Below are positions 39,213 to 52,691 of a DNA stretch of 64,000 nucleotides, one piece after another (within the stretch, counting starts at the first letter, position 1; the number at the start of each line of letters is the position of its first letter). Source of the stretch: a candidate division WOR-3 bacterium (GTDB taxonomy: Bacteria; Hydrothermota; UBA3073); NCBI GenBank assembly GCA_023129165.1, contig JAGMCL010000039.1, positions 1,839-65,838 on the forward strand, in the 5' to 3' direction. The position numbers and the translations under genes were made by a program. The notes beneath the pieces are model-generated. The model saw nothing but the letters and a program-made list of their open reading frames with translations, was not told where the DNA came from and made no database searches.

Positions 39213-39214
39213 AG

Positions 39215-40051
39215 TTATTTATTAGTTATTTGAAAGATCGCCAACTTCAAAACCTGCCAGCATAATTTAGCCGTGTGCTCATCTGGATTAAATTGCTGAT
39301 TTGCTTGCTGATATGGGTGAATATAATTTCTAAAATCTCTCAATGAATGGCTGAATTTCTTTACATCTTCTTTTAAAAACCCAATTTCCTTAGCAACATC
39401 TATAAAATTACTTAGCGTCCATTTATGAAATTGTAAAACTTTTCCGTTTTTATCTTTTGGACTGGTTTTTGCCATATTGAATTTTTGCGGATTGCTTGTT
39501 GCAACACCAAGCAATATTCCTTCAAGCGTGCTTCCGCATAGAAAGATTGTTGCTAAAGCCGCTTTTGAATTTAAGCATTTTTTAATTTCTTCAAGTCTCT
39601 GCTCAAGTATACTCGTTATTATCCCATCTAATTTTAACGAACCAATTGAAACTTCATTAAATTCCTTTTTTAAAAATTCATCCTCTGTAATGTTTTTGTT
39701 TTGCGTTTGTTTACCAAGCAATCTATCACTAATCTTCTTAGCCTTGTCAATAAGATTTTGAGGGAAATCGTTTTGTTGAAGATTGTCAATTAAAATTTGG
39801 TTTTCAATGTACTCAACAAGTTTTTCTATAGATTTGCCAACTAAAGAATCGCCAGCCACTTGCCAAAAACCTCTCATGCAATTGGCTTTTGATCCGCTTG
39901 CATAGTTATATTTTTCATCGTAGATATTAATGCCGACATCATCATTAAAAAACTCCCCCATTGTCCTATCGGAGAAATTAAGGACATAACCTCCGCTCAT
40001 TTGAAAAAGCTTCTCTAACGCTTGCTTATCGTTTGTAGTTAGACTTGCCAT
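39215..40051 (-). CDS. HEPN-like (Abi/DUF4145-like) protein inserted between hsdM and hsdS.
   Basis: The C-terminal about 120 aa (ALATIFLCGSTLEGILLGVA...KFSHSLRDFRNYIHPYQQ...AKLCWQVLKLAIFQI) contains an R-x(4-6)-H HEPN-type motif in an all-helical context. The position between M and S genes matches the known tendency of HEPN/Abi genes to embed in type I RM operons. The N-terminal 150 aa is unassigned. Confidence 0.35.
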   Translation of the reverse strand: MASLTTNDKQALEKLFQMSGGYVLNFSDRTMGEFFNDDVGINIYDEKYNYASGSKANCMRGFWQVAGDSLVGKSIEKLVEYIENQILIDNLQQNDFPQNLIDKAKKISDRLLGKQTQNKNITEDEFLKKEFNEVSIGSLKLDGIITSILEQRLEEIKKCLNSKAALATIFLCGSTLEGILLGVATSNPQKFNMAKTSPKDKNGKVLQFHKWTLSNFIDVAKEIGFLKEDVKKFSHSLRDFRNYIHPYQQANQQFNPDEHTAKLCWQVLKLAIFQITNK

Positions 40052-40054
40052 GGA

Positions 40055-42145
40055 CTATCTCCAAAAACTTAATTTCTCTTTTTTCGCCCAATCAATAAAC
40101 GCTTCGGCAATACCATCTGCAAGCTCGCCGTTGTGATTTTGCAAGTCATGATCCACAATCAAATGACCAAATTTATCCAACATAGGCTTACCGTCACAAT
40201 TTTTGACATAAATATAATCCCCTGAATTATCTTTCCCCGCCTTCTCTGATACACCAAAAAATATTGGGTAATCTTTCTGTTTGGGACATAATTCATCATC
40301 CCATTTCTGAACGAACAACATGCTTGTCTTTGTGCCGGTATGAGGTTTAAAAGTATTTACATGCAGACCCACAACCGCAATGATTCGCGCCTTATCGGCA
40401 ATATATTCCCGAATGTCTTTATCCGATGTATTGTTAAATCTTCCTTGAGGTAAAACAATCGCCATACGTCCACCGGGCTTGATAAAATCAAGATTACGCT
40501 CGATAAAAAGAATATCCCGACCGACCTTTGACTTGGGCTTGTTTTTATTATTATAACCAAGCTCGTATTTATGGATTATACGGGATTCCTTAATATCTCC
40601 GGCAAAGGGTGGATTTGCCATCAAAATATCAAACAGAAAATCTGTATTTCCTTCGCTGTTTTTTTTCAATTCTTTTAAACGCTTATATCCGCCTCCATAA
40701 GTCTCGATCCAATTCGGATTTTTCGTTGTCTCGTCCCAACGGTCATAATCAAGTGTGTTTAAATGTAAAACATTTGTCTCACCGTCTCCTGCAATGAGAT
40801 TTAAGGTGCGTGCCACACGCACCACTTTCTCGTCGAAATCGATGCCGAACACTTTCAATACATCTTCTTTTTCTTCGGCAGATATCTCCTTGTTTTCGAA
40901 CAAATGGCCAGTTAAATAAAAAATTGTATGAACGGTAAATCCGCAGGATCCGGCAGCAGTATCGATCATATATTCGCCCTTTTTGGGATTGAGCATCTTA
41001 ACGCACATATCGATTACGTGACGAGGCGTAAAATACTGCCCTTTTTCACCTTTGGAAGATTTGCTGACCAAATATTCGAATGCCTCATCGATAACCTGTA
41101 AATTGGAATTGAAAAGCTTTACGTCTTGAAGGCTCGATATACATATGGAAAGATGCGAAGGTGAAAGATCGATTTTACTTTCATCGGGAAACACACCGGT
41201 CCATTTCCTTTTTGCTTCATCGAATAGCTTTTGAATTTTCTTTTTTAATTCTCCTTCCGACTGACCGGTATTCCTGAATTCCAGGATCCTGAACGATGAA
41301 TCATCCACCCCTTGAATAGCTTCTTTGATTTCATCGAATGAATTTTCTTTCGGCTTTCCATATTTAGCTTTAGGCTCGGCAATCATAGGATAATCTTTAT
41401 CCCTTAAAAAATAATTTATAACCACCCTATCCTTCTGGCTTTTGTGTTCATCATATAATTTAGTGAATATCAGCTTAAAAACTTCTTCGAATACATCGAC
41501 TCCAGCATTGGCAAGAACCTCATCTTCCATATCCTGGATAATCGTCTTGAGGGATTTCCCCTCCGAAGGAATTTTATCTTTGATAATTAGGTCTTTAATC
41601 GTATATCGTTCTTTAAGGATATCCGCAAGAGTCTGACTGGCATTTGGAATATCGGTTATATCCTCGAAAAAATTAGGGTCTTTGCGGTTATAATGGGAAA
41701 TCTGACCTCCGTTTGTCCATACGGCTATAGGCGCACCAGTAGCATTACAATAACTCTTGAGCTGTTCCTTGCCATCTTTCAGCTTGGGTTTTTTAACCTC
41801 GATGATGATATATTCGATGGTCGGACGCTCTTTATCGAAAACTACGATATCGGAAGATTTCGTCTGCCGTCCAAACTGCACAGGATGCTCGAATCTAATT
41901 CTTTTCTTGGGATAGCCATAATAATTTATCAATTTTGCAGTATAAAGCTGGCGTACGACTTCTTCGGGTTTAAGTTGAATTTCCTTTTCTCGAATTATGC
42001 ACTCCACATATAGCTTGCCTTTTTTTTCGATAATCTTTTTCTCAAGAACCGTTATTTCTTCAGGCGCAAATATCGAAAGATTGTATTGTGAATCTTTTAA
42101 TATGGAAAGCAGAGTAATTTTATCGTCACTTTTTGCCATAAACAC
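40055..42145 (-). CDS. hsdM: N6-adenine DNA methyltransferase (HsdM-like, gamma class) fused to an N-terminal PD-(D/E)xK (HSDR_N-like) nuclease domain.
   Basis: N-terminal about 170 aa: ...SDIVVFDKERPTIEYIIIEVKKPKLK (D...E-V-K nuclease signature) within an HSDR_N-like fold. Then the HsdM N-domain and catalytic domain with motif I (IDTAAGSCGF) and motif IV NPPF (MANPPFAGD). 696 aa, versus about 500 aa for a plain HsdM. Confidence 0.75.
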   Translation of the reverse strand: MFMAKSDDKITLLSILKDSQYNLSIFAPEEITVLEKKIIEKKGKLYVECIIREKEIQLKPEEVVRQLYTAKLINYYGYPKKRIRFEHPVQFGRQTKSSDIVVFDKERPTIEYIIIEVKKPKLKDGKEQLKSYCNATGAPIAVWTNGGQISHYNRKDPNFFEDITDIPNASQTLADILKERYTIKDLIIKDKIPSEGKSLKTIIQDMEDEVLANAGVDVFEEVFKLIFTKLYDEHKSQKDRVVINYFLRDKDYPMIAEPKAKYGKPKENSFDEIKEAIQGVDDSSFRILEFRNTGQSEGELKKKIQKLFDEAKRKWTGVFPDESKIDLSPSHLSICISSLQDVKLFNSNLQVIDEAFEYLVSKSSKGEKGQYFTPRHVIDMCVKMLNPKKGEYMIDTAAGSCGFTVHTIFYLTGHLFENKEISAEEKEDVLKVFGIDFDEKVVRVARTLNLIAGDGETNVLHLNTLDYDRWDETTKNPNWIETYGGGYKRLKELKKNSEGNTDFLFDILMANPPFAGDIKESRIIHKYELGYNNKNKPKSKVGRDILFIERNLDFIKPGGRMAIVLPQGRFNNTSDKDIREYIADKARIIAVVGLHVNTFKPHTGTKTSMLFVQKWDDELCPKQKDYPIFFGVSEKAGKDNSGDYIYVKNCDGKPMLDKFGHLIVDHDLQNHNGELADGIAEAFIDWAKKEKLSFWR

Positions 42146-42463: not shown

Positions 42464-44011
42464 TCACACCTTCTCTGTTATAGCCTTTGCCTGGAGGAAA
42501 AAGAGAAGATAATCCCTTGAGCCTGTTTTCGTATCAGTTCCAGAAAGGTTAAACCCGCCAAAAGGATGAACTCCTACAAGAGCACCTGTGCATTTTCTGT
42601 TTATATATAGGTTTCCAACATGGAATTCTACCTTTGCCCTTTCTATCTTTTCTCTGTTATTTGTATATACTGCACCAGTTAGTCCATAATCCGTACCATT
42701 TGCTATATCCATAGCATCATCGAAATCCTTTGCGGGTATGACTGCAAGTACTGGACCAAATATCTCTTCCTGTGCTATTCTTGCGTTGGGGTTTAAATCG
42801 GTTATTATAGTGGGCTTTATATAGTATCCATCGCCTTCAGCAGGTTCACCACCAAGAACGAGTTTTCCTTCTTTTTTACCAACTTCTATATATTCAAGAA
42901 TGCTTCTATATGCCCGTTCATTTATTACTGCACCCATGAAGTTTTCAGGGTCTTCTGGTGGTCCTTGTTTTATCTTCTTTCCTTTTTGTACAAGTTTATC
43001 GATGAATTCGTTGTAAATTTCATCAAGAACTATAGCTCTTGAACAGGCTGAGCATTTCTGACCCTGGTATCCAAATGCTGCTACAATTACTCCATTCACT
43101 GCAGAATCAAGGTCTGTTTCAGAATCCACTATAATCGTATCTTTACCACCCATCTCAGCTATAACTCTCTTTATCCATTTCTGACCTTTGGATAGTTTGG
43201 CAGCAAGCTCCACTATTCTTAGGCCTACTGCCTTAGAACCTGTAAATGTTATAAATCGTGTCTTTGGAGAATTCACAAGAATATCACCAATCTTACCTCC
43301 GCTTCCTGGTAGGTAGTTTACAACACCATCAGGTACACCAGCTTCCTCAACGATTTCCATGAACTTCGCACCTGTAACAGGAGAATCACTTGATGGTTTT
43401 AAAACAACAGTGTTACCTGCTCCAAATGCAGCGGCTGTCATACCAGTAAGTATAGACATTGGAAAGTTCCAGGGTGGTATAGATACTCCAACTCCAAGTG
43501 GTATATACCACATCTCAGGCTTTTCACCAGGAAATGGAGTTATATCGCCTCCCTTACCGTATCTAATGACCTCCCTGGCATAATAGTCAAGAAAGTCTAT
43601 TGCTTCTGCAATATCTCCATCTGCCTCAGGCCAGGATTTTCCAACTTCATATACGAGCCAGGCATCAAGTTCGTATCTCATTCTTCTCATTATATCTGCC
43701 ATTTTAAAGAGGTATTCTGCTCTTTCCTCTGCTTTTGTATATCTCCATTTTTTAAAGGCCTCCGTTGCTACTTCGAGTGCTCTCTCTGCGTCTTCTACAG
43801 ATGAGTTCTCAACTATTCCTACAACATCGTCCTTGTGGGATGGATTTATAGATTTTATAGGTGTTACAATTTTACCTTTCTTTCCCCCGATTATGTTGGG
43901 ATACTCTTTGCCCAATTCACCCTTTACTTTTGTCAGGGCATTCTGCATCATTTTTTTATTCTCGTCGTTTTTGAAGTCTATAATAACTTCGTTTTTGAAA
44001 TCTCCCCTCAT
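42464..44011 (-). CDS. rocA: L-glutamate gamma-semialdehyde (1-pyrroline-5-carboxylate) dehydrogenase, aldehyde dehydrogenase family.
   Basis: 515 aa. The N-terminus (KNEVIIDFKNDENKKMMQNALTKVKGELGKEYPNIIGGKK) matches RocA/PruA. Catalytic Cys region (GQKCSACSRAIV) and Glu (AEMGGKD). Confidence 0.8.
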   Translation of the reverse strand: MRGDFKNEVIIDFKNDENKKMMQNALTKVKGELGKEYPNIIGGKKGKIVTPIKSINPSHKDDVVGIVENSSVEDAERALEVATEAFKKWRYTKAEERAEYLFKMADIMRRMRYELDAWLVYEVGKSWPEADGDIAEAIDFLDYYAREVIRYGKGGDITPFPGEKPEMWYIPLGVGVSIPPWNFPMSILTGMTAAAFGAGNTVVLKPSSDSPVTGAKFMEIVEEAGVPDGVVNYLPGSGGKIGDILVNSPKTRFITFTGSKAVGLRIVELAAKLSKGQKWIKRVIAEMGGKDTIIVDSETDLDSAVNGVIVAAFGYQGQKCSACSRAIVLDEIYNEFIDKLVQKGKKIKQGPPEDPENFMGAVINERAYRSILEYIEVGKKEGKLVLGGEPAEGDGYYIKPTIITDLNPNARIAQEEIFGPVLAVIPAKDFDDAMDIANGTDYGLTGAVYTNNREKIERAKVEFHVGNLYINRKCTGALVGVHPFGGFNLSGTDTKTGSRDYLLFFLQAKAITEKV

Positions 44012-44100
44012 AAAACCCCCGATATAAAATCAAAAATCAAATATTAAATATTAAAATTAGACATTATCCTAAAGTGTTGTGATGACTAACAATAGGGCAA

Positions 44101-44243
44101 CTGTCATTGCAAGTCTCTACGAACTTGGCAATCTTATCTACTCAATCTGTCATTGCGAGTGAATAAAATGAACGCGGCAATCTCATATGTGATATAATTC
44201 AGTAAAAAGCGATTGCTTCATCCTTACGGATTCGCAATGACAG
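44101..44243. repeat. Cluster of GTCATTGCGAG-family motifs in both orientations, between radC and rocA.
   Basis: ctgtcattgcaag (44101), ctgtcattgcgag (44147), gcgattgcttc (44209) and ggattcgcaatgacag (44228). Related copies lie at 10478-10528, 46840-46874 and 57954-57969. Confidence 0.75.
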
Positions 44244-44328
44244 AAAAGACCCGTATCACGTAACTTTGAGACACTCCCTAAAATCAAATATCAAAAATAA
44301 CCCAATGACGAGTGACCAATGATCGACT

Positions 44329-45012
44329 TTATAGCAATTTCTCAGATGCAAAGCTGAAGTATTTATTATCTCCAATTATAATATGGTCCAAAACCCTAAT
44401 ATCTACTGGGTTAAGTGCATTTACAACATCTTGAGTTATCGTTTTGTCTTCAGGTGATGGGGTTGGATCTCCTGATGGATGGTTGTGTACGAGAATGACA
44501 GAACTTGCGTTCTTTTTTAAAGCAGTTTTTACAATTTCCCTGGGATAAACAGCTGATGAGTCGACTGTTCCATTAAATAGATTATCTATATCAAGTAGCC
44601 TGTTTTTGATATCTAAAAAAAGAATTTTGAAGACCTCTTTTTTAATACCTCTCATTGAAACATATAGATAGTCAAATACATCCTGTGGATTTTTATAAAC
44701 ATCATTCTTTAAAATTTTATCTTTGAGATATCTTTCTGTTACCTCTTTTATTAATCTTATACCGAAGATATTTTTAGGACCTATACCACATACCCTCCGT
44801 AGCTCATCAGGTTCTCCCTCTATAACACCACGCAATGTCTTGAATTTTTTTATAAGTATCTTGGCTTCTTGTTTACAATCCTTTCTCGGAGTACCAAGGG
44901 TTAGTAAGAGTTCTACAATCTCATAATCATGCAACCCTAATAGTCCCGACATAATAAATTTATCTCGCAGTCTCTTCCTATGTCCTTCTCTGGTATCCAT
45001 AATAGATATCAA
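44329..45012 (-). CDS. radC: RadC-like JAB/MPN domain protein (UPF0758).
   Basis: C-terminal JAMM-like motif (ASSVILVHNHPSGDPTPSPEDKTITQ) plus the N-terminal helix-hairpin-helix region typical of RadC. Confidence 0.8.
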   Translation of the reverse strand: MISIMDTREGHRKRLRDKFIMSGLLGLHDYEIVELLLTLGTPRKDCKQEAKILIKKFKTLRGVIEGEPDELRRVCGIGPKNIFGIRLIKEVTERYLKDKILKNDVYKNPQDVFDYLYVSMRGIKKEVFKILFLDIKNRLLDIDNLFNGTVDSSAVYPREIVKTALKKNASSVILVHNHPSGDPTPSPEDKTITQDVVNALNPVDIRVLDHIIIGDNKYFSFASEKLL

Positions 45013-45047
45013 AATTGCAAATCAAAATTCAAAAACTTGGGCAACAC

Positions 45048-45773
45048 CTACACCTCAAAAACATTTATAACCTCTTCCCCAAGCATATCAATGATTTTTA
45101 CTGCAACTTGGGTTTTAGATTCTGGGATTTCAATTTCATATTTTCCTTTTACTAAGTCGTTTTTTCTTTCTGGAACATCGGAGTAAACGATATGGAAGGT
45201 TTTGCCATCGTAATTTTTATCAATTAAAACTGTATCAATCATAGATCTATAATCGGGGATTTTTACCTTGAAGAGTTTATTGTCAATGTTAAGACGTTCA
45301 ATTATTGTGGGAGAGATAAAGTTCTGAATCTCCACTAATGTCTTTGTCTTATCAATCCTTTCAACTTTTATTTTTGCTTCTGCGGGCTTGTGGATTAAGA
45401 AATTACCATATTTTTTATTTGTCTTTAACTCAATTACTTTAATCTTATTTACAGGATGTTTCTTGTTCCACTCATCAATCCAGGGGTCAACCGCTAATTC
45501 TTTGCCAAGACAGACAATAGTTATATCCCTATCTTCAGTTGGTCTTTTCTTTAATTCATCTTGAAGAAGTTGTAAGTCAAGAAGTGTTAGGGGATGATTA
45601 AAATCAATAATTTTTACGAGATTTTTCCCTAAATATCCATCAAAAAATCTATCGGTTCGTGTCCTTTGAATTCCAATATGCTGGACTGCAAGTTCAATTG
45701 CCTCGGTTTTTAAAAGTTGCAAATCATAGTCGTTAACCTTATAGATACCGAAAGAATAATACTTCTTACACAT
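45048..45773 (-). CDS. Hypothetical protein in the defence operon; unassigned.
   Basis: 241 aa. Overlaps the upstream DUF1016 gene by 8 nt. I recognise no motif. Confidence 0.3.
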   Translation of the reverse strand: MCKKYYSFGIYKVNDYDLQLLKTEAIELAVQHIGIQRTRTDRFFDGYLGKNLVKIIDFNHPLTLLDLQLLQDELKKRPTEDRDITIVCLGKELAVDPWIDEWNKKHPVNKIKVIELKTNKKYGNFLIHKPAEAKIKVERIDKTKTLVEIQNFISPTIIERLNIDNKLFKVKIPDYRSMIDTVLIDKNYDGKTFHIVYSDVPERKNDLVKGKYEIEIPESKTQVAVKIIDMLGEEVINVFEV

Positions 45774-46800
45774 CTTTTGCCTCCAGTTTTAATTGTGCAG
45801 TTTGTATGGCTTTATGTAATTTTTCAGCAAATAATTCTTTTGGTGGCAATTTTGTCAGGTATTCCGCTACTTTTATTCTATCCTTTGGTAAAAATAGAAG
45901 TTCTATCTGCTCTTTACCTTTTTCAGCACAGAGTATAAGTCCAACAGGTGGATTCTCTCCTTCAAGCATTTCATATTTCTCTAAATATCTGAGATAAAGT
46001 TCCATCTGACCTTTGTAGTCTGCTTTAAATTTCCCAAGTTTTAAGTCTATCACTATGAAGCATCTTAATTTTCTGTGGTAAAATACCAAATCCATATAGT
46101 AATCCTCGTTATCAACAGTAATTCTTTTCTGTCTTGCCACAAAATAGAAATCTTTTCCTAATTCAAGGATAAATTTCTCAAGGGCATTCAATATTGCTCT
46201 TTCTAAATCTCTTTCACTATAAGTATCGCTGAGTTCTAAAAAGTCCAATACATAAGGGTCTCTAAAAACTAATTCTGGTGTCATTTTGTCTTTTTCTTTT
46301 AGTTCTTTTAATTGCATTTTTATAGTCTTTTCTGGAAGTTTTGACAATGCGGTTCTTTCATAAAGCATACTATTCATTCTTTCCTGAAGTGTGCGTGTGC
46401 TCCAGTGTTCTTTCAAGCATAAGGTAGCGTAAAATTCTCGTTTTAATTTATCTTTTGTTGGCAAAAGAGTTCTAATATGTGTCCAACTCAGCCCTTCTAA
46501 TTCTCCACGCAGTGCGTGGAGAATTGGGTAGCTTTCATATAACTGAATCATATACCACAAATTTTGTGTTGAATATCCTTTACCGTATTTTTGTGTTAAT
46601 AGTGAACTAACCGAGTTCACTATCTTTTTCCCATACTCAGCCCTATATGACTTTATTATCTCTTCTTTGACTGTCTTACCTATGTTCCAGTAGAGCAACA
46701 CCATCTCCTGATTGATAGTAGTGGCAACTTTTCTTCTTGCCTGTTCTATCAAGCCAGAAATTTTGTCAAACAGACCTTTACCTTTCTCAATTTTATTCAT
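45766..46800 (-). CDS. DUF1016/YhcG-family PD-(D/E)xK nuclease-fold protein.
   Basis: Matches the YhcG pattern: N-terminal helical domain (LSWTHIRTLL) and C-terminal PDDEXK core (GKDFYFVARQKRITVDNEDYYMDLVFYHRKLRCFIVIDLKLGKFKADYKGQMELYLRYL). Confidence 0.7.
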   Translation of the reverse strand: MNKIEKGKGLFDKISGLIEQARRKVATTINQEMVLLYWNIGKTVKEEIIKSYRAEYGKKIVNSVSSLLTQKYGKGYSTQNLWYMIQLYESYPILHALRGELEGLSWTHIRTLLPTKDKLKREFYATLCLKEHWSTRTLQERMNSMLYERTALSKLPEKTIKMQLKELKEKDKMTPELVFRDPYVLDFLELSDTYSERDLERAILNALEKFILELGKDFYFVARQKRITVDNEDYYMDLVFYHRKLRCFIVIDLKLGKFKADYKGQMELYLRYLEKYEMLEGENPPVGLILCAEKGKEQIELLFLPKDRIKVAEYLTKLPPKELFAEKLHKAIQTAQLKLEAKDV

Positions 46801-47957
46801 TAACTAATTCCTTTTTTTTGATTTGTTGAAGTTCTTCCACTGTCATTGCGAGGCATAGCCAAAGCAATCGCATTTTTTATCTGCTCTTGTATTATTCCCT
46901 GCAATCTCTTGCTCGTTATCTGAATTGCTCCCTTGTTTATATCACACCCAATCCATCGCCTGCCAAGTGCTTGGGCAACCGCAAGAGTTGTGCCTGAACC
47001 GATGAAGCAGTCAAGGACTATTCCATTTTCATTGGAAGCGGCTTTTATAATACGCTTAAAAATCATATCATGCTTTTGTGTTTGAAAACCCGTTTTACTA
47101 TCACCCCTAATCGCTGGTACTTCGATAAAATTATCTGCTTTTTCTTCATAAACTAAAAAGTACCTTATTTTACCGTCTTTATCTCTGATCCTTTCTGCTT
47201 TGCCCATTTTTTCATTCCATTGATGCATACTTGCTTTTCTTGGCTTATCTAACTTTTCGTAAACTTCATTGTAGATATGTGATCCTTTATGTTTTGCGTA
47301 CCATAGAATATTCTCTGTATTTTGATGAAATTTCTTCGATTTCGCCTTTAGTCCCACAGCTGTATAATGAACAATCACTTCATTTAAAAAGTTATCTTCA
47401 CCGAATATTTCATCTATGAGCAGCTTTACATAGTGAGCCATACGCCAATCCAGGTGCACATAAATAGAGCCTGTATCTGCTAACAACTCCTTTAAAAGTA
47501 TCAATCTCTCATACATAAACTGCAAATAAGTATCATTATTCCAAATATCAAAATACATTGTCTGTTGTAAGATAGATGCTTCATCTTCTTCTATCCGCCC
47601 TAAATTTTTTAGTCCTCTGAGTTCAACTTTTCTTACATAATCCGCCCCGCTTTTAAATGGTGGGTCTATATAAATCAAATCAATCTTTCCTCTGAATCCT
47701 AATTCAAGAAGTGTTGCTAAAATATCCTTATTATCTCCGTGAAATAGTAAATTATGCCAATTATCTTTGAGATTCTCATATGAGATTGCTTCGCCTTTGG
47801 CTCGTAATGACAAATCGCCTGGCGGGTCAAAGACTTCTACAAGTTGGGCAGGAAATCCTTTAACATAATCGAGCGGCTTTTTACCTACCCAGTTAAGCAT
47901 TGGTCGTCCTTTAGCAGAAGAGATTTTGATTTTATTTTCTGCCATTATAGCCCCCAT
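46800..47957 (-). CDS. Beta-class N6-adenine/N4-cytosine DNA methyltransferase (Type III Mod-like; short).
   Basis: N-terminal LNWVGKK. Motif IV DPPF (IDLIYIDPPFKSGADY) precedes motif I near the C-terminus (LDCFIGSGTTLAVAQALGRRWIGCDIN), which is beta-class order. The last about 25 codons overlap a dispersed repeat copy. Confidence 0.75.
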   Translation of the reverse strand: MGAIMAENKIKISSAKGRPMLNWVGKKPLDYVKGFPAQLVEVFDPPGDLSLRAKGEAISYENLKDNWHNLLFHGDNKDILATLLELGFRGKIDLIYIDPPFKSGADYVRKVELRGLKNLGRIEEDEASILQQTMYFDIWNNDTYLQFMYERLILLKELLADTGSIYVHLDWRMAHYVKLLIDEIFGEDNFLNEVIVHYTAVGLKAKSKKFHQNTENILWYAKHKGSHIYNEVYEKLDKPRKASMHQWNEKMGKAERIRDKDGKIRYFLVYEEKADNFIEVPAIRGDSKTGFQTQKHDMIFKRIIKAASNENGIVLDCFIGSGTTLAVAQALGRRWIGCDINKGAIQITSKRLQGIIQEQIKNAIALAMPRNDSGRTSTNQKKGIS

Positions 47958-50538
47958 ATTTATATATTGCTTCTCTAACTTTATTCAAACCTTCAAAAGT
48001 TAGTTGCTCCCCCTTCGTCTCTACAATTTCATACTTCAATCTATCAGGGTTCAGTCCTTCAATTCTTCTCATTTCCTTTTCCTTTGCTTCATCTTTAAAT
48101 CGTTCAGCTTTTATCTCAATGATTAGCATTTTGCCATTTTTCCTTCTTATTAAAAAATCAGGTGAGTAATTATGATACCCGCCATCTTTACCTTTATATT
48201 CAAAGAGAAAATCGGTCTTTTTAGGGTCGTCAATTGCTCCTGTAAAATAAACATCCTCAACATCTGCTGGGTTTTCATTTAACATTGCTAACAGTTGCTG
48301 GAAGAAATCTACTTCAGGATTAGAATCAAACTTATAGGGATTATAGTGAAAACCAAAATCTCGTTTATTTAATTCTTTAAATTCCTCATACCTTTTAAGC
48401 AAATGTTCTTTATCTTTGTGATAAATTATTTCTGTCACATAGTTCTCATCTTTCTTATTGAAACCAGCAGTTTTCACAAGTGCCAATGCAGACTCAACTT
48501 CTTCCTCTATTATTTTATAATTTTTTAGTTGTCTCTCAATTTGTTTTTTAATTTCATGGGTATCATTGCTGGACATTTCTCCATCAGGATATAAATTCTT
48601 TAGTTTTTCATGTACTGGCATAAGCGGTAATCTATACAGAGCTGAAAGCTCAACAGCAAAAGAATAGGCATCAACAAAATCTTCTTCTGTTATTAGTTTT
48701 TCATCTTTCTGTGCTATCAAAACACCTTTTCTATCAGGAATTTCTTTTAGGTCATAGAAAATCTTTTTGACCTCATCTATAGAAATATCAGGTTTTTGTA
48801 ATTCTATTTGAGTGATATCAATTTCTTTATCAACTGGGATAACTTTTTGAATCTTTTTTCTGAGTAAAACGGGTGGTATCTCCACTTTTCTTAAAATTAG
48901 TCTATCCTTTCTTATATCTTGTGGAGTTCTATTTAAATCTTCAAGAGTTTCACCATAGGTCTCTTTAAGTTGTGTGTCTAAAATTCCGACATTATCTTTT
49001 GAAAGGTAGATTTTTGCCTTGTGTATATTGCCAGTAGTTTGTCTGAGGCAGCGGGAAGCAGCTTGAAGGCAAAAGTTATTACTTGCTGTCAGTTTTCGTG
49101 CTAAGGCAGTAGAAAAAAGAGATAAGCAATTCCATCCCTCAGTCCCTTTATTAACAAGAAGAAAAATGCGGTAAAGTAGGTGTGGGTCATTTATTCGGTT
49201 ATCAAATAAATCCTTAACCTCTTGTTTTGACTCATTATGCACTTCTAAAACTATAGAAGGATCAAAGCCGAGCTCTATTAAGGTTTTTTCAACAACTGGC
49301 TTGGCATTTGTTAAATCCTCTATTTTTGGAAAATATATTGCCAGTTTAGAAGGACTACCATCATAGATCTTTACATCTTTATAACTCTTAAAGAAATCTG
49401 TAATAACATCTTTTAGAAAATCTCTATCCGTTACTTCTGAATAAGATACAATATTGCCCCGGACTTCTTTCAATATTCCATCTTTTATCCCTTGCGATAG
49501 ACCATACCAACAAACAACATCTTTAAGGATCTGTCTTTTATAATATGGAGTCCCAGTGGTGTTTACCACAACTAAAACATTTGTCTCTTCTGATAAATAA
49601 TTAACTGTTTGTCTCACTCTCTTCAGTTCTTTACCGAGTGCCAGTCCATAGGTATGGTGTGCTTCATCAGAAAAGATAGCAAGATTTGGAAGAGAGGCAA
49701 TTGTTTGCAATCTCTGATTGGCTATCACCTCCTTTACCTCATCTTCTCGGGATGGGTCAACAAATAAATCTTTGATTAAAGATTTGGTTATTGATTGTTT
49801 TTGTATTCTAATCTTTTCTGTATTAGTTACCACGATATTATAACTTGAACCTTTGATTATTGGAATGTCTTTTTCGCCATCGCGAGTATAGGTAAATTTT
49901 GTAGTGGTTATAAACTGTTTATAAAGCCTTTCAGGCAATATTTTCTCATAAGGAACATCCGATAGCTCTTTTAATGCTCCTAAGATGGTCTTGCCTGGCG
50001 CAAATACCAGGGCATTTTTGACAAAGTAATCCTCTGGATATTCAAGAGCCATTGCAAATTCTGTAGCGATAATAGCGCCAATTAAAATGGTCTTACCTGC
50101 TCCCATCGCCAATGCTAATATGTAGCTGGAGTAAGACAGGATTAGTGTTTCTCTGAGAGCTTGTAACCTATATTTTTTTACAAAGGCGTCGTCGTCTCTT
50201 ATTTTTTTAAATATTGAATTTATTCCGCCACCAGAGATAGCAATTTTTTTCCAGTCTTCATCTGTTAGTTTAATACCCAGAGCATCTAAAAGGTCATTTG
50301 GAGGAAAGATTTTTTTGTATAAATCAAAAATATGTGGAGTTTTTTCAATGAGTCTTAAATACCAGTAAGTTTCAAGGGCATCAAATTGGGCTTTTCGTAA
50401 GAAACGAAGGTTTTGGGTTCCTGAATTATAGTTGAAATTGAGAATTTCACCAATAACAGAATACCCTGTATTATAACTGTTATTTCTCCATTCAGACACT
50501 CTTGTTCTTAGTGTATCATGTAAATACATAACAGGCAA
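47932..50538 (-). CDS. SF2 helicase with a C-terminal PD-(D/E)xK nuclease motif (Type III Res-like restriction subunit).
   Basis: Walker A (AMGAGKT), DEAH box (FSDEAHH), motif III (TGTP), motif VI (QAASRCLRQ). C-terminal YSPDFLIRRKNGKMLIIEIKA (D...E-I-K). Overlaps the methyltransferase start by 26 nt. Confidence 0.65.
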   Translation of the reverse strand: MPVMYLHDTLRTRVSEWRNNSYNTGYSVIGEILNFNYNSGTQNLRFLRKAQFDALETYWYLRLIEKTPHIFDLYKKIFPPNDLLDALGIKLTDEDWKKIAISGGGINSIFKKIRDDDAFVKKYRLQALRETLILSYSSYILALAMGAGKTILIGAIIATEFAMALEYPEDYFVKNALVFAPGKTILGALKELSDVPYEKILPERLYKQFITTTKFTYTRDGEKDIPIIKGSSYNIVVTNTEKIRIQKQSITKSLIKDLFVDPSREDEVKEVIANQRLQTIASLPNLAIFSDEAHHTYGLALGKELKRVRQTVNYLSEETNVLVVVNTTGTPYYKRQILKDVVCWYGLSQGIKDGILKEVRGNIVSYSEVTDRDFLKDVITDFFKSYKDVKIYDGSPSKLAIYFPKIEDLTNAKPVVEKTLIELGFDPSIVLEVHNESKQEVKDLFDNRINDPHLLYRIFLLVNKGTEGWNCLSLFSTALARKLTASNNFCLQAASRCLRQTTGNIHKAKIYLSKDNVGILDTQLKETYGETLEDLNRTPQDIRKDRLILRKVEIPPVLLRKKIQKVIPVDKEIDITQIELQKPDISIDEVKKIFYDLKEIPDRKGVLIAQKDEKLITEEDFVDAYSFAVELSALYRLPLMPVHEKLKNLYPDGEMSSNDTHEIKKQIERQLKNYKIIEEEVESALALVKTAGFNKKDENYVTEIIYHKDKEHLLKRYEEFKELNKRDFGFHYNPYKFDSNPEVDFFQQLLAMLNENPADVEDVYFTGAIDDPKKTDFLFEYKGKDGGYHNYSPDFLIRRKNGKMLIIEIKAERFKDEAKEKEMRRIEGLNPDRLKYEIVETKGEQLTFEGLNKVREAIYKYGGYNGRK

Positions 50539-50577
50539 CCTTTAAGAATTGAGTTGTAAAAAATTTGTTTAACACCC

Positions 50578-50633
50578 TGCCCCTGGAGGGATTCGAACTC
50601 TCGCTAACCCGGTTCCGACCCCACACCGCTTTA
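50578..50633 (-). other. tRNA-like 3'-half fragment (T-arm plus acceptor 3' strand) immediately 3' of tRNA-Arg.
   Basis: Minus strand ...GGGTTAGCGAGAGTTCGAATCCCTCCAGGGGCA carries a TTCGAAT T-loop and acceptor strand CAGGGGC. The T-stem has one mismatch. Confidence 0.3.
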
Positions 50634-50707
50634 TGCCCCGAGCAGGATTCGAACCTGCAACGCTCGGTTCCGAAGACCGACGCTCTTATCCATTGAGCTA
50701 CCGGGGC
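50634..50707 (-). tRNA. tRNA-Arg (anticodon TCG).
   Basis: Minus-strand sequence GCCCCGGTAGCTCAATGGATAAGAGCGTCGGTCTTCGGAACCGAGCGTTGCAGGTTCGAATCCTGCTCGGGGCA folds as a canonical cloverleaf. 7 bp acceptor stem (one G-U pair). D arm GCTC/GAGC. Anticodon stem TCGGT/ACCGA with loop CTTCGGA. T arm GCAGG-TTCGAAT-CCTGC. No encoded CCA. Confidence 0.8.
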
Positions 50708-50710
50708 CCC

Positions 50711-50747
50711 TGAAATGGTGTGGGGCTATCCACTGAGCTACAGGGGC
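50711..50747 (-). other. tRNA-like 5'-half fragment (acceptor 5' strand plus D-loop) immediately 5' of tRNA-Arg.
   Basis: Minus strand GCCCCTGTAGCTCAGTGGATAGCCCCACACC is 22/26 identical to the 5' part of the adjacent tRNA-Arg. Its acceptor GCCCCTG pairs perfectly with CAGGGGC of the downstream fragment. CCCCACACC / GGTGTGGGG form a 9 bp helix bracketing the intact tRNA-Arg. Confidence 0.3.
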
Positions 50748-50981
50748 AGTCGCCAAAATCAAATATCAAAAATCAAATATAAAAATTGTAATCACAGCTT
50801 ACACAGATTTTATCAGATTAAATAATTTTTCCCAGTCAGTGAAGTCCTTGCCTACCGGCTGGTAGCTGTGGCTCTTAAAGAAAAAAATCTGTTTTATTAT
50901 TTTTCTCTGTGCCCTCTGTGGTTTTATTAACGCATATTTTAGGATAATTTTAATTTTTGCATTTTGATTTTTAACTTGTAT

Positions 50982-52691
50982 CTAATATCTATAGTCTTCT
51001 ATCTTTGATAATTCTATCTGGGACTTGAGCCATTCATTAAATGCTTTATCTCTTCTTTCCTTCCATAACTCAACCTGAAACTCAGAAAATTTCTCCTGTA
51101 TTGTTTCTATCTCTGGTTCTTCTCTTTTTATACATTTAATTATAAAACAAGCGTCTTTTCCAATGACCGGGTTGCTTACGTTTCCTTCAGAGGTTACCCA
51201 AATTGCTCCATAAAATGTGGGATCTGTGGGCATATCAATTGGAGGATTTACTATAGAGAATTTGTCAACCTTTTTATATTTAATGTCTTTCAATGCCCTA
51301 TTAAATGTAGTTCCATATTCTACATTATTTTTAACTTCTATTAGTATAGTTTTTATAATCGCTTCCCTTTTCTCCTTTAAATAACTTTCCTTAACTTCCT
51401 CTTTTATCTCACTGAAGGGTGGTATTGTTTCAGGTATTGTGCCTCTATTTGTCCATACATAGATACCATCTTTTCTGCGGATAGGCTGGGATATTTTGCC
51501 TATCTTTGATGTGAGAAGAAGATTTGATATATCAAAACCATCTAATTCTTCAGATGTGGTTTCTTGAAGTTCGAGGTTCATAGCTTGTGCTCCATTTTCG
51601 AATCCATTCTCCTGTGCAAGTTCTATGAATGAGAAGGCATTATCCATAGCTAAACCAATTGTTTCATAAGAGGGAACAAGTCTCAGGTAGATTTGAGAAA
51701 TTTCAACGGAATCTCTTGTCCTACTATAGCATTTAAAGATATAAACTCCATCTTCTGTTTTTATAGGACCATATATGTCATCCCTGGACATTGAGAATAT
51801 TGCCTTTTCAAGCTTGTTGCTTAATTTACCCCTTTTAACAAAACCGATATAGCCAAATTCTCTTTTGGTTTTTGAATCGTCAGAAAAACGGAGAACAAGT
51901 GTGTCAAACGATTCACCTGAATGTAGTTGTGATATAATATCCGTTGCTTCTTCTATTAGCATGTTCTCATCTTCAAGTGATGCCGATAGATTGAATTTAA
52001 CATACTGTACGAGTATAGCTTTAGGTCTTTTAAAGAGCTCTTTTTCTCTCTCATAGTATTCCTGCAAATCGCTTTCATCAAAATCAACAATTATGTCCTC
52101 TGTGTGTATCTCTCCATACTCTACAGTAAACAGTGTATTTCTCTTAAAATATTCATTAATTGATGCTGTAGGTTGTACTGTTGAGAGCACCTGCATATAG
52201 AGTCGTTGTCTGGGTATTATATCTCTTATCCAGGATTCGTACTGTCTAAAGTATCTTATGTTTTGAGGATTTTGAAATAATTCTGCATACTTCAGGTAGT
52301 CAAACTCCCCACTGGTATAGAAGGTTGTGTCCTGCAGTATCTGTGGGGGAGGATTGGTCTTTATTGCATCTACAACCTCCTTATCACTGGGGATTAGTCC
52401 AACCTTTTGGTAATAGTCTCTTAAGATTGTTGCCTCAACAAGTGTATTGAATGCCGAATCTGATGCCTCATCCTCAGTATAGCCCATCTCCATGTAATTT
52501 CTTACGAGATTGCTATAGGCAATAGAAGAGATTTCTTTACCATTTACCTCTGCTATAACCCCTTTCTGTAGTTGTGTCATTGATCGAGAGCTGGCAAATC
52601 GCATACCCCATTGAAAGAAGATGAATGCAACAAATATTGCAACGGCAAACCACAAGAAGACGGTAATCTGTTTTCTCAATCTTTGTATCAT
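50982..52691 (-). CDS. Periplasmic chaperone / peptidyl-prolyl cis-trans isomerase, PpiD/SurA-like.
   Basis: N-terminal TM anchor, a SurA_N-like chaperone region, and a parvulin (PpiC-type) domain (IGFVKRGKLSNKLEKAIFSM...GPIKTEDGVYIFKCYSRT). Confidence 0.7.
   Translation of the reverse strand: MIQRLRKQITVFLWFAVAIFVAFIFFQWGMRFASSRSMTQLQKGVIAEVNGKEISSIAYSNLVRNYMEMGYTEDEASDSAFNTLVEATILRDYYQKVGLIPSDKEVVDAIKTNPPPQILQDTTFYTSGEFDYLKYAELFQNPQNIRYFRQYESWIRDIIPRQRLYMQVLSTVQPTASINEYFKRNTLFTVEYGEIHTEDIIVDFDESDLQEYYEREKELFKRPKAILVQYVKFNLSASLEDENMLIEEATDIISQLHSGESFDTLVLRFSDDSKTKREFGYIGFVKRGKLSNKLEKAIFSMSRDDIYGPIKTEDGVYIFKCYSRTRDSVEISQIYLRLVPSYETIGLAMDNAFSFIELAQENGFENGAQAMNLELQETTSEELDGFDISNLLLTSKIGKISQPIRRKDGIYVWTNRGTIPETIPPFSEIKEEVKESYLKEKREAIIKTILIEVKNNVEYGTTFNRALKDIKYKKVDKFSIVNPPIDMPTDPTFYGAIWVTSEGNVSNPVIGKDACFIIKCIKREEPEIETIQEKFSEFQVELWKERRDKAFNEWLKSQIELSKIEDYRY

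Follow-up and report, generated by a model that had tools for sequence, protein, structure and literature searches.

The window analysed here, the whole stretch of 64,000 nt of DNA from a candidate division WOR-3 bacterium, probably contains a two-gene Type III-like restriction–modification (RM) system in which the methyltransferase gene (mod) has been split by a cassette carrying a YhcG/DUF1016 cargo gene, and in which the adjacent radC gene is a mere neighbour. The locus appears to be an example of cargo embedding in RM systems, a known phenomenon, here with a split Mod.

Organization of the locus

The locus comprises five ORFs on the minus strand, and its layout and motifs agree with an earlier note on this DNA, made from the sequence alone. 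The features are as follows.

Res, 50529..47932, minus strand: 865 aa from the ATG at 50529 (NCBI call); SF2 DEAH helicase with C-terminal PD-(D/E)xK
ModN (methyltransferase), 47957..46800, minus strand: 385 aa; N6_N4_Mtase 2.7e-43
YhcG/DUF1016, 46800..45766, minus strand: 344 aa; PD-(D/E)xK nuclease fold; putative cargo gene
ModC (241-aa ORF), 45773..45048, minus strand: predicted C-terminal domain of Mod as its own polypeptide
RadC, 45012..44329, minus strand: 227 aa; RadC profile 8.8e-47
Inserted cassette, 46841..45768, minus strand: 1,074 nt, equal to 358 codons
ModC translational restart, 45784..45771, minus strand: GGAGG at 45784–45780 and ATG at 45773–45771

The coordinates bear out the five same-strand ORFs and the overlaps described previously. 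Res and the methyltransferase overlap by 26 nt, the methyltransferase and YhcG by 1 nt (TAATG), and YhcG and the 241-aa ORF by 8 nt; a gap of 35 nt separates the 241-aa ORF from radC. An in-frame TTG at 50538, upstream of the Res ATG, would extend Res to 868 aa (50538..47932). Promoter and terminator scans of the locus gave results at shuffle level and are uninformative. A search of positions 44000–51100 against Rfam returned a single match, a tRNA. A tRNA-linked island was rejected as a family trait, since a tRNA is found within 1.5 kb in just four of about 52 family loci.

Affinity of Res and Mod to Type III systems

The earlier description of Res as a helicase with a C-terminal PD-(D/E)xK domain holds. 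Pfam ResIII matches at 1e-06, and the motifs GAGKT (aa 146), DEAHH (aa 291) and PD...EIK (aa 793–810) are present; GAGKT, DEAHH and D794/E808/K810 are invariant across 14 homologues. The architecture, an SF2 helicase core and then a C-terminal PD-(D/E)xK, is that of a Type III Res. Membership of a recognized Type III Res sequence family was nevertheless rejected. The PADLOC REase_III models gave no match to Res even at E<=1, in a search in which the canonical Res of locus L100 scored 1.6e-230, and neither the single sequence nor a Res profile found a sequence match in the PDB. The NCBIfam model BPTD_3080 reaches only 70 bits against a cut-off of 800. NCBI labels an identical 865-aa protein 'DEAD/DEAH box helicase family protein', and the label given by JGI to homologues of Res, of which there are at least 2,968 in public data, is 'type III restriction enzyme'.

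ModN represents the N-terminal 372 aa of Mod, comprising an N-terminal domain (NTD), a beta-class methyltransferase (MTase) core (DPPF, FxGSG) and a variable target recognition domain (TRD). It ends in a 13-aa tail (SGRTSTNQKKGIS) and a stop codon, both of which come from the insertion. The 385-aa MTase with LNWVGKK and DPPF noted previously was recovered, with LNWVGKK at aa 21 and DPPF at aa 98. This motif IV precedes motif I (FIGSGTT, aa 318), which is the beta-class order, and the TRD lies between the two motifs, where aa ~200–290 vary among homologues. The PADLOC model MTase_III PDLC03633 matches ModN at 1.1e-66, with profile positions 43–359 of 616 alone covered. When a profile of the Mod family was searched against the PDB, the best match was EcoP15I Mod (4ZCF_A, 1.2e-35), over the NTD–MTase–TRD part only, followed by 6K0W_B (annotated as Mod; 1.1e-28) and 7DSU_A (Mbo45V; 2.8e-22). 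The MTase part is closest, among solved structures, to EcoP15I Mod; this supports the divergent Type III variant that had been suggested as one of two readings, and the locus appears to encode a divergent Type III-like RM system. Searches with the PADLOC models matched the MTase and YhcG (see below), but not Res.

In the window, as in every one of the 59 related loci holding both genes, Res precedes Mod. The inverted order remarked on in the earlier note is real but is not peculiar to this locus; res followed by mod is the normal order throughout this large family. Other genes stand between Res and Mod in 33 of the 59 loci, and this intergenic cargo includes OLD-like, HEPN+MNT, Fic and DUF3800 genes, among others.

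Interruption of the mod gene

The 241-aa ORF, initially an unknown, encodes the C-terminal domain of the methyltransferase (ModC). It has 313 homologues, the majority of them fused behind PF01555, and in a library of 1.84 billion proteins the domain forms the C-terminus of proteins of 600–700 aa. Of 91 related loci, 72 encode ModN and ModC together as a single uninterrupted Mod. The homology of ModN to contiguous Mods stops at ...AIALAMPRND (aa 372), and Mod sequence is uninterrupted across the junction in proteins P0002, P0027, P0032 and P0009. The impression of a very short Mod is therefore an artefact: Mod appears short because its gene is split, and ModN together with the 241-aa ORF makes up the usual ~600-aa Mod of the family. 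An AF2 model of ModC (pLDDT 82.8) predicts an alpha/beta subdomain and an Ig-like beta-sandwich; similarity between ModC and the C-terminal domain (CTD) of EcoP15I Mod was undetectable. EcoP15I ModA dimerizes through its NTD and MTase domain, and its CTD makes contact with Res (PMC4490356). Because its position matches that of this Res-docking domain, ModC probably links the methylase to Res.

The YhcG cassette sits in the flexible linker between ModN and ModC, so that an inserted DUF1016 nuclease gene divides the mod gene. Three elements make up the cassette: a short leader, in which the ribosome-binding site AAGGA lies, the YhcG ORF, and the restart signals for ModC. Its exact removal (358 codons) would give an in-frame Mod, ...PRND|KKYYSF.... 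The empty sites compared were those of L013 and L019 (...CCTCGC AATGAC^AAGAAG CAC TAC...), the sequence around the insertion point being ...GCTATGCCTCGCAATGAC|AAGAAGTATTATTC..., and the cassette boundary is ambiguous by about 1 nt. At the downstream end, GGAGG stands six nt 5' of the ModC ATG, both within the final codons of YhcG, and the YhcG stop codon TAA (45768–45766) overlaps codons 2–3 of ModC. The GGAGG-N6-ATG-N-GTAA arrangement is also found in L001, L003, L005, L095 and L114, and a restart end of similar form, GGAGG-N5-ATGAGTAA, occurs in L027, whose cargo is a different one. A Shine–Dalgarno (SD) sequence plus ATG restart is conserved across all split loci.

Examination of the cassette ends for terminal inverted repeats (TIRs) and target-site duplication (TSD) found none, and no recombinase is present among the annotated window genes flanking the locus; a transposon was rejected on these grounds. 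An intron or intein was also rejected, given that Rfam shows a tRNA only, that the YhcG frame differs from that of Mod and that ~40 nt of the insert are non-YhcG.

The YhcG gene and its relatives

Both Pfam domains of YhcG (DUF1016_N, 1.4e-44; YhcG_C, 6.7e-51) are full length and far above gathering thresholds, and D237, K254 and Q265 are conserved in at least 95% of 31 homologues. The protein matches the PADLOC candidate PDC-S02 (PDLC04807) at 4.2e-129 over residues 5–340 of 344. DUF1016 has been associated with restriction MTases, ResIII and HsdS, and prior reports place it adjoining or amid the core genes of Type I and Type II systems (PMC3424549; PMC9881135). A limited literature search found no report of DUF1016 interrupting a mod gene, and a search for experimental reports of anti-phage activity of PDC-S02/YhcG found none.

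Comparison of the related loci suggests that YhcG arrived by insertion as cargo and moves horizontally; most relatives, including the closest, do not have it. About 90% of family members lack the gene, and in the relative closest by Res (86%) Mod is unsplit, without the insertion. Of the res-mod-DUF1016 synteny whose recurrence the earlier note had wished to see checked, the res-mod part recurs throughout, and the DUF1016 part in a small minority of relatives. As is characteristic of embedded genes, YhcG lies amid the RM core on the same strand and is missing at the site in 72 of 91 loci.

Close relatives of this YhcG (77–91% identical) are mostly either solitary or flanked by mod and res of a canonical Type III system, and several stand alone beside housekeeping genes. 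In about 18 loci, relatives 74–85% identical lie between or directly beside canonical Type III Mod and Res; these hosts match PDLC03634 (5.8e-168) and PDLC03647 (1.6e-230). The closest relative found, in L094 (91% identical), is on a 1.6-kb contig without Mod or Res on either side.

Origin and possible function of the split locus

In the explanation that we favour, the locus belongs to a widespread res-then-mod family with a beta-class, N6-adenine-type Mod of ~600 aa, in which a flexible linker joins an EcoP15I-like NTD–MTase–TRD part to a C-terminal domain of ~235 aa that is specific to the family. The cassette entered the linker, ended ModN and brought its own ribosome-binding site and ATG for YhcG, and its last codons (GGAGG plus ATG) restart ModC, which yields tightly coupled ModN, YhcG and ModC ORFs. 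ModN may retain the capacity for dimerization, target recognition and methylation, and ModC may rejoin it non-covalently. If, by analogy with EcoP15I, ModC bridges methylase and Res, as is probable, the system would still restrict as a Type III enzyme. YhcG would be a hitch-hiking 'embedded defence gene', a mobile single-gene nuclease usually housed in Type III operons, and would most likely act as an independent or back-up nuclease rather than as a subunit.

Between split loci, dN/dS is 0.04–0.21 for Res, ModN, YhcG and ModC (0.06–0.2 for YhcG and 0.04–0.17 for ModC), with dS saturated, and the dN of YhcG and that of ModC co-vary. Res is intact in the window, L001 and L005; in L114 it is truncated by the contig, with aa 326–859 visible only. 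Purifying selection acts on Res, YhcG and both parts of Mod, and it is therefore probable that the split system works, although some of this signal could be older than the insertion, should the insertions have been recent and independent events.

It is possible, if on balance unlikely, that YhcG is instead a selfish, homing-endonuclease-like gene, whose product cleaves uninterrupted Type III mod/res junctions or linkers, allowing the gene to insert a copy of itself through recombination. On this view, the stop codon, SD sequence and ATG would be adaptations that neutralize damage to the host gene, as for mobE in nrdA of phage Aeh1, and a nuclease gene within a coding sequence, with both halves intact and with insertion-made tails, does parallel mobE/nrdA (PMC3045599). 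The spread of the gene is patchy: split loci are scattered in a neighbour-joining tree of 235 aa of ModC (the resolution of which is too low to distinguish single from repeated insertion), and the closest relatives by Res are unsplit. One YhcG lineage (77–91% identity) occupies several contexts, there are three YhcG paralogues within the one RM locus of L005, and at the identical Mod linker site L027 carries a GIY-YIG gene, a classical homing-endonuclease fold. The lack of transposase, TIR or TSD would also fit. However, comparison by eye of the flanks of the three context types (Mod linker, canonical mod-res junction and solitary) found no common motif that could represent a shared target. 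The co-varying divergences of YhcG and ModC, with dS saturated, fit long vertical linkage better than frequent re-invasion, and YhcG is at the Mod linker in just one of 80 GTDB species-representative loci, so that invasion, if any, is rare. To our knowledge, YhcG/DUF1016 has never been demonstrated to be a homing enzyme. Homing and our favoured explanation overlap in part; they differ in the reason for the presence of YhcG and in its mode of movement.

A further cargo at the same linker is DUF4258+DUF2283, a toxin–antitoxin pair, in L026. The linker may be a second cargo slot, repeatedly hit by unrelated nuclease or toxin genes, with a self-mobilizing, Type III-specialized YhcG and guard-type defence; we consider this extended reading a speculative one, of low probability. 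Every landing (YhcG, GIY-YIG or DUF4258/DUF2283) would leave a translationally restarted ModC, and through the split, ModN would be responsible for methylation and ModC, separately, for Res docking. Restriction would accordingly rest on a regulatable, non-covalent assembly that an embedded nuclease could monitor.

YhcG could be wired into the RM complex as a latent nuclease checked by Mod/Res and freed by phage inhibition of the RM system, in the manner of the PrrC/EcoprrI guard, a precedent discussed by Payne et al. (bioRxiv 10.1101/2024.01.29.577857). Placement between ModN and ModC would secure stoichiometric co-expression, translational coupling is tight at both YhcG ends, and the link between this YhcG lineage and Type III operons is strong, specific and seen in two layouts unrelated to each other. 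We think such a role improbable, as the solitary relatives beside housekeeping genes indicate that an RM partner is not required, and the L094 protein likewise has neither Mod nor Res beside it.

It is equally doubtful that the insertion inactivated the system and left a decaying RM remnant (an orphan ModN with inert Res and ModC, or a pseudogene operon) with YhcG as the sole functional newcomer. The covalent link between ModC and MTase has been lost, and decayed relatives exist: L003 holds YhcG-ModC alone, without Res and ModN, ModC is an orphan in L004, L008 and L010, the YhcG of L011 is broken by IS110, and the Mods of L013, L051 and L053 are frameshifted. Split loci can thus decay. In the window, however, the four ORFs are whole, the catalytic motifs of Res, ModN and YhcG are intact and the restart signals are kept, and among split loci dN/dS is ~0.05–0.2 per gene with dS saturated. 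Moreover, a Res without a working Mod could not locate its target, and nothing would then select for an intact Res. An origin of L003 by recombination between YhcG copies is not supported, since blastn homology to L005 stops at the FakA flank and resumes within YhcG-c.

The other reading in the earlier note, a five-gene helicase–methyltransferase–nuclease defence system including DUF1016, the 241-aa gene and RadC, is refuted by comparative synteny and is extremely improbable: the ORFs are all co-oriented, overlapping or closely spaced, and on their strand no terminator-like site lies between the genes (a scan at shuffle level), but the 241-aa gene belongs to Mod, most of the family is without YhcG, and among about 90 related loci there is none in which RadC adjoins the system. 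The window RadC is canonical and full length (NCBIfam PRK00024, 225.6 bits against a cut-off of 180). A RadC-like ORF is present in the flanks of one of 93 loci, L076, on the opposite strand and ~2.7 kb upstream of Res. RadC was rejected as a component of the system, being without conserved synteny with Res and Mod, and appears to be an unrelated housekeeping neighbour.

Comparison with known systems

The split disguises Mod as a short protein and its tail as a 'hypothetical protein', and because no PADLOC model matches Res, the PADLOC Type III rules would probably miss the system. The similarities to Type III systems (EcoP15I/EcoP1I, 4ZCF) lie in the N-terminal part of Mod, homologous across the NTD, beta-class core and TRD, in the order of SF2 DEAH helicase and C-terminal PD-(D/E)xK in Res, and in a C-terminal Mod domain after a linker, which in EcoP15I contacts Res. 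In contrast to the mod-then-res order of Type III systems, res precedes mod here and throughout the related loci, and Res has no PADLOC Type III Res or PDB sequence match. The C-terminal domain of the family Mod is also larger than that of EcoP15I (~235 aa, alpha/beta plus Ig-like sandwich), and at the window locus Mod is encoded as two polypeptides. This suggests that a Type III-like methylase core and its C-terminal domain can work as separate polypeptides, a natural experiment that could help to map which part of Mod talks to Res.

The window protein conforms to the YhcG/DUF1016 family (PF06250/PF17761) in its two full-length domains and in the reported RM association, and the link of its lineage to Type III systems in two layouts makes DUF1016, a very common protein, a concrete candidate for a defence or selfish nuclease.

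Payne et al. (bioRxiv 10.1101/2024.01.29.577857) described defence genes embedded in host orientation ('guilt-by-embedding'). The present locus is similar in having a host-oriented nuclease gene amid an RM core, in the match of YhcG to the embedded candidate PDC-S02 and in the typical embedded cargo that relatives carry between Res and Mod. In the cases of Payne et al. the embedding systems are Hma, BREX, DISARM and Type I RM, with the cargo placed between their genes, whereas here the host is Type III-like and the cargo is inside a coding sequence, at an interdomain linker, and supplies restart signals. Cargo embedding can thus extend into coding sequences where a flexible linker exists, and the insert itself can supply the signals that keep the host gene working.

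In Aeromonas phage Aeh1, nrdA is split by mobE, a free-standing endonuclease gene (PMC3045599). The resemblance includes an inserted gene of endonuclease fold, two intact and presumably co-expressed halves, short insertion-derived tails and presence or absence among relatives. Unlike nrdA, the host gene here is a cellular RM gene rather than a phage metabolic gene, and it is split at a domain linker rather than within a catalytic fold; YhcG, for its part, is not an established homing endonuclease, and a common target was not found across its contexts.

Gene content and flanking regions

The five head-to-tail ORFs described in the earlier note are all present on the minus strand at the positions that it gave:

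50538..47932, minus strand: Res-like helicase with a C-terminal PD-(D/E)xK domain, 868 aa from TTG, or 865 aa from the ATG at 50529 (NCBI annotation)
47957..46800, minus strand: methyltransferase (ModN), 385 aa
46800..45766, minus strand: YhcG/DUF1016 nuclease, 344 aa
45773..45048, minus strand: 'unknown' ORF (ModC), 241 aa
45012..44329, minus strand: RadC, 227 aa

Reading of the sequence also revealed the 26-nt overlap between the Res and methyltransferase ORFs, the other overlaps reported, and the LNWVGKK, DPPF, FIGSGTT, GAGKT, DEAHH and PD...EIK motifs. Pfam E-values for the domains range from 1e-06 (ResIII) to 6.7e-51 (YhcG_C); the 241-aa ORF has no Pfam match. The observation itself stands; the interpretation placed on it is supported in part.

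RadC is canonical and full length (PRK00024, 225.6 bits). It had been counted as part of the system, but is adjacent in none of approximately 90 related loci and is therefore a mere neighbour. It is followed downstream by an aldehyde dehydrogenase gene and then by a separate RM-like operon, the 'first defence operon' of the earlier note:

37779-42145, minus strand: RM-like operon, encoding
a 696-aa protein with HSDR_N_2, N6_Mtase and Eco57I domains
a 278-aa ORF with no Pfam match
a 477-aa protein with a Type I specificity (Methylase_S) domain

Upstream, the system is flanked by tRNA-Arg and by a gene for a SurA-like PPIase. An intact tRNA-Arg(TCG), at 50634-50707, has a tRNA-like half fragment on either side; the whole region (50572-50752, minus strand) ends approximately 45 nt before the start of Res. 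The ends of the outer half fragments pair like an acceptor stem (GCCCCTG/CAGGGGC), and a perfect 9-bp inverted repeat (CCCCACACC/GGTGTGGGG) lies on both sides of the arrangement. The region has an MFE of -76.7 kcal/mol (z = -2.07), and ARAGORN, with introns allowed, calls the inner tRNA only. Possible explanations are disruption of a tRNA gene, a scar left by integration, or nesting.

The interrupted mod gene

PDLC03633, the best of the PADLOC models for Type III Mod, has 616 positions, of which only 43-359 align to the 385-aa methyltransferase, so that the C-terminus is apparently missing. A search with the 241-aa ORF yielded 313 homologues, in most of which PF01555 precedes the matching region. 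These run without a break from the methyltransferase motif-I region into the 241-aa ORF (...LDCFIGSGTT...RRWIGCDINKGAIQ...RLQKII.EQIK-linker-K.YP[ST]F.IYKVNDYDLQLL...). ModN and ModC form a single in-frame ORF in 72 of the 91 related loci with a readable junction, and among 1.84 billion representative proteins searched with a profile, the ModC domain lies at the extreme C-terminus of proteins of 600-700 aa. On these grounds the 'very short Mod' and the 'unknown gene' together make up one normal Mod. The shortness of the methyltransferase ORF is a consequence of the split.

The ends of the insertion were set by direct comparison with two empty sites, in which the linker is uninterrupted (an empty-site duplex reads ...GCTATGCCTCGCAATGACAAGAAGTATTATTCTTTC...):

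empty site L013: ...EQIKTEIASALPRND^KKHYSFTIYKV
empty site L019: ...ASASPRNN^KGHYSFAIYKV
filled site of the window: ...EQIKNAIALAMPRND / SGRTSTNQKKGIS (stop) ... YhcG ... M-C / KKYYSFGIYKV

The insertion (45768..46841) is 1,074 nt, exactly 358 codons, so that precise deletion would give back an in-frame Mod. Its 5' end supplies a 13-aa tail and stop codon for ModN, the latter overlapping the YhcG start (TAATG). GGAGG, followed after 6 nt by the ModC ATG, lies entirely within the last YhcG codons, and the YhcG stop overlaps ModC codons 2-3. The right-hand junction is identical in layout in every other split locus (L001, L003, L005, L095 and L114). The mod gene is thus interrupted, in an unusual but explicable way, at the linker between its domains, by an embedded cassette that carries YhcG and its own restart signals. 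Linker length and composition vary widely among contiguous Mods, which is consistent with a flexible tether tolerating interruption.

YhcG is not an intein, as it is out of frame with Mod, and no intron-like RNA was found at the locus. The insert ends show neither terminal inverted repeats nor duplication of the target.

Relationship to Type III systems

A scan of GTDB species representatives with the ModC profile gave 424 confirmed matches, the best 80 of which come from many bacterial phyla and archaea, with 52-88 % ModC identity. ModC is more conserved than the ModN or Res of the same locus (L014-L093), and orphan ModC genes persist without Res or ModN (L004/L034, and L008/L010, where an IS110 element precedes them). 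ModC may therefore have a role, or be under a constraint, other than that of a simple tether.

Res precedes Mod in all 59 loci holding both genes; the 'inverted' order is thus real, but normal for the family. The best solved structure for the Mod family profile is EcoP15I Mod (1.2e-35), the alignment extending to residue 457 of 644 and spanning the N-terminal domain (NTD), methyltransferase core and target-recognition (TRD) insert. The next matches, 6K0W and 7DSU, are also annotated as Mod proteins. The Res helicase and PD-ExK motifs are invariant in 14 homologues. Public data contain at least 2,968 Res homologues, with the annotations 'DEAD/DEAH box helicase family protein' or 'type III restriction enzyme'. 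Res gave no match to the PADLOC Type III Res models, even at E<=1 (a canonical Res scored 1.6e-230 in the same search), and none to the PDB. Mod membership and Res architecture agree with Type III; Res family membership and gene order do not. The system is therefore classed here as Type III-like, within a large, poorly annotated res-mod family.

Gene anatomy, insertion, coupling signals, homologies and selection are established; a working scheme may be added by analogy. In EcoP15I, Mod dimerizes via the NTD and methyltransferase domains, the TRD reads the site, and the C-terminal domain (CTD) of one protomer is in extensive contact with Res (PMC4490356). ModN alone should likewise dimerize, recognize its target and methylate, since EcoP15I uses the NTD/methyltransferase and TRD for these functions. 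ModC, produced as a polypeptide of its own, would couple ModN to Res, and the docked helicase-nuclease would restrict unmethylated DNA in a Type III manner. ModC matches the EcoP15I CTD by position only, because its AF2 model (pLDDT 82.8; an alpha/beta subdomain and an Ig-like sandwich) had no specific match in structure comparison.

Distribution and origin of YhcG

Relatives of the window YhcG, nearly all 70-91 % identical, were found in 59 metagenomic loci, only three of which (L095, L114 and L139) have a split Mod. In approximately 18, YhcG is either flanked by, or immediately next to, a Mod of 580-660 aa and a Res of 854-872 aa; in one of these, L100, the pair is confirmed as canonical Type III in mod-res order (PDLC03634, 5.8e-168; PDLC03647, 1.6e-230; Pfam RE_endonuc). 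Several more carry short remnants of Type III Mod/Res flanks, and others are solitary beside housekeeping genes, e.g. smc, alr, ackA and pfl. The relative nearest in sequence, L094 (91 %), is on a 1.6-kb contig without Mod or Res sequence. From this range of contexts, the YhcG lineage is a single gene that moves horizontally and clearly favours Type III operons, and most likely not a dedicated subunit of the system in the window.

YhcG is most simply hitch-hiking cargo, which may act as a nuclease in its own right or as a back-up. A competing possibility is a selfish, homing-type origin, paralleled in phage Aeh1, where mobE splits nrdA and insertion-derived tails rescue function (PMC3045599); comparison of flanks across the three kinds of YhcG context revealed no obvious common target.

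A Cloacimonadota MAG (L005/L021, 1400-8732) carries three divergent YhcG paralogues in a single RM locus: one ahead of Res, a broken one between Res and Mod, and one in the Mod linker. In a related contig with the same FakA...DegV flanks (L003, 6974-8747), only YhcG-ModC is left, Res and ModN being deleted. Recombination between YhcG copies as the cause of this deletion finds no clear support, since blastn homology of L003 to L005 stops at the FakA flank and otherwise lies only within YhcG-c. In L095 (277-7224), two ISL3 transposase copies surround an OLD-like gene fragment and ModN-YhcG-ModC, without Res; on this contig, of the Parcubacteria group, part of a split system seems to have been captured in the manner of a composite transposon.

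Selection and decay

Pairwise dN/dS among split loci (the window, L001, L003, L005 and L011), in which synonymous sites are saturated, was 0.04-0.17 for ModC, 0.06-0.20 for YhcG, 0.09-0.21 for ModN and about 0.1 for Res. YhcG and ModC non-synonymous distances are closely parallel (e.g. 0.115/0.113, 0.087/0.101 and 0.075/0.072), which indicates a unit probably long co-inherited, with selection on ModC after the split. The catalytic motifs of the window proteins are all intact.

On the other hand, split loci are scattered in the ModC tree (low resolution), and in L153, the relative nearest by Res (86 %), Mod is unsplit and its linker is of another type; this requires that modules recombine, or that insertion is repeated or precisely lost. 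Some derivatives have decayed (L003, L011 and the orphan ModC genes). L153 (121-7759) comes immediately after a CBASS-like pair (CD-NTase and Cap15), and thus lies in a defence island. L084 (6689-8702) has probably arisen by deletion: its Res-like ORF is distant (27 % identity) and truncated, the Mod linker and ModC follow it directly, and both the nuclease domain and ModN are lacking.

Cargo slots and comparison with known systems

Extra DNA of 0.4-2.4 kb is present at the Res-Mod junction in 33 of the 59 loci, and in 28 of these all called junction ORFs are on the Res/Mod strand. The cargo ORFs tested comprise OLD-like ATPase-TOPRIM, HEPN and nucleotidyltransferase, DUF1828/1829, radical-SAM/DUF5131, Fic, DUF3800, MJECL33 and a second YhcG subfamily (about 43 % identical). 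A further slot, used less often, is the Mod linker, where besides YhcG a GIY-YIG gene (L027) and a DUF4258/DUF2283 pair (L026) occur.

The finding bears mainly on annotation, on how modular Type III Mod is, and on the function of DUF1016, for which it offers a lead. DUF1016 genes adjoining RM genes have been noted earlier (Steczkiewicz et al., 2012; PMC9881135). The window YhcG matches PDC-S02 (4.2e-129), one of the PADLOC PDC candidates originating from Payne et al. (2024), who described embedding in Hma, BREX, DISARM and Type I RM systems. The cargo slots of the present family match that pattern. RM-embedded cargo and genes-in-pieces are known phenomena, of which the split mod gene is a variant.
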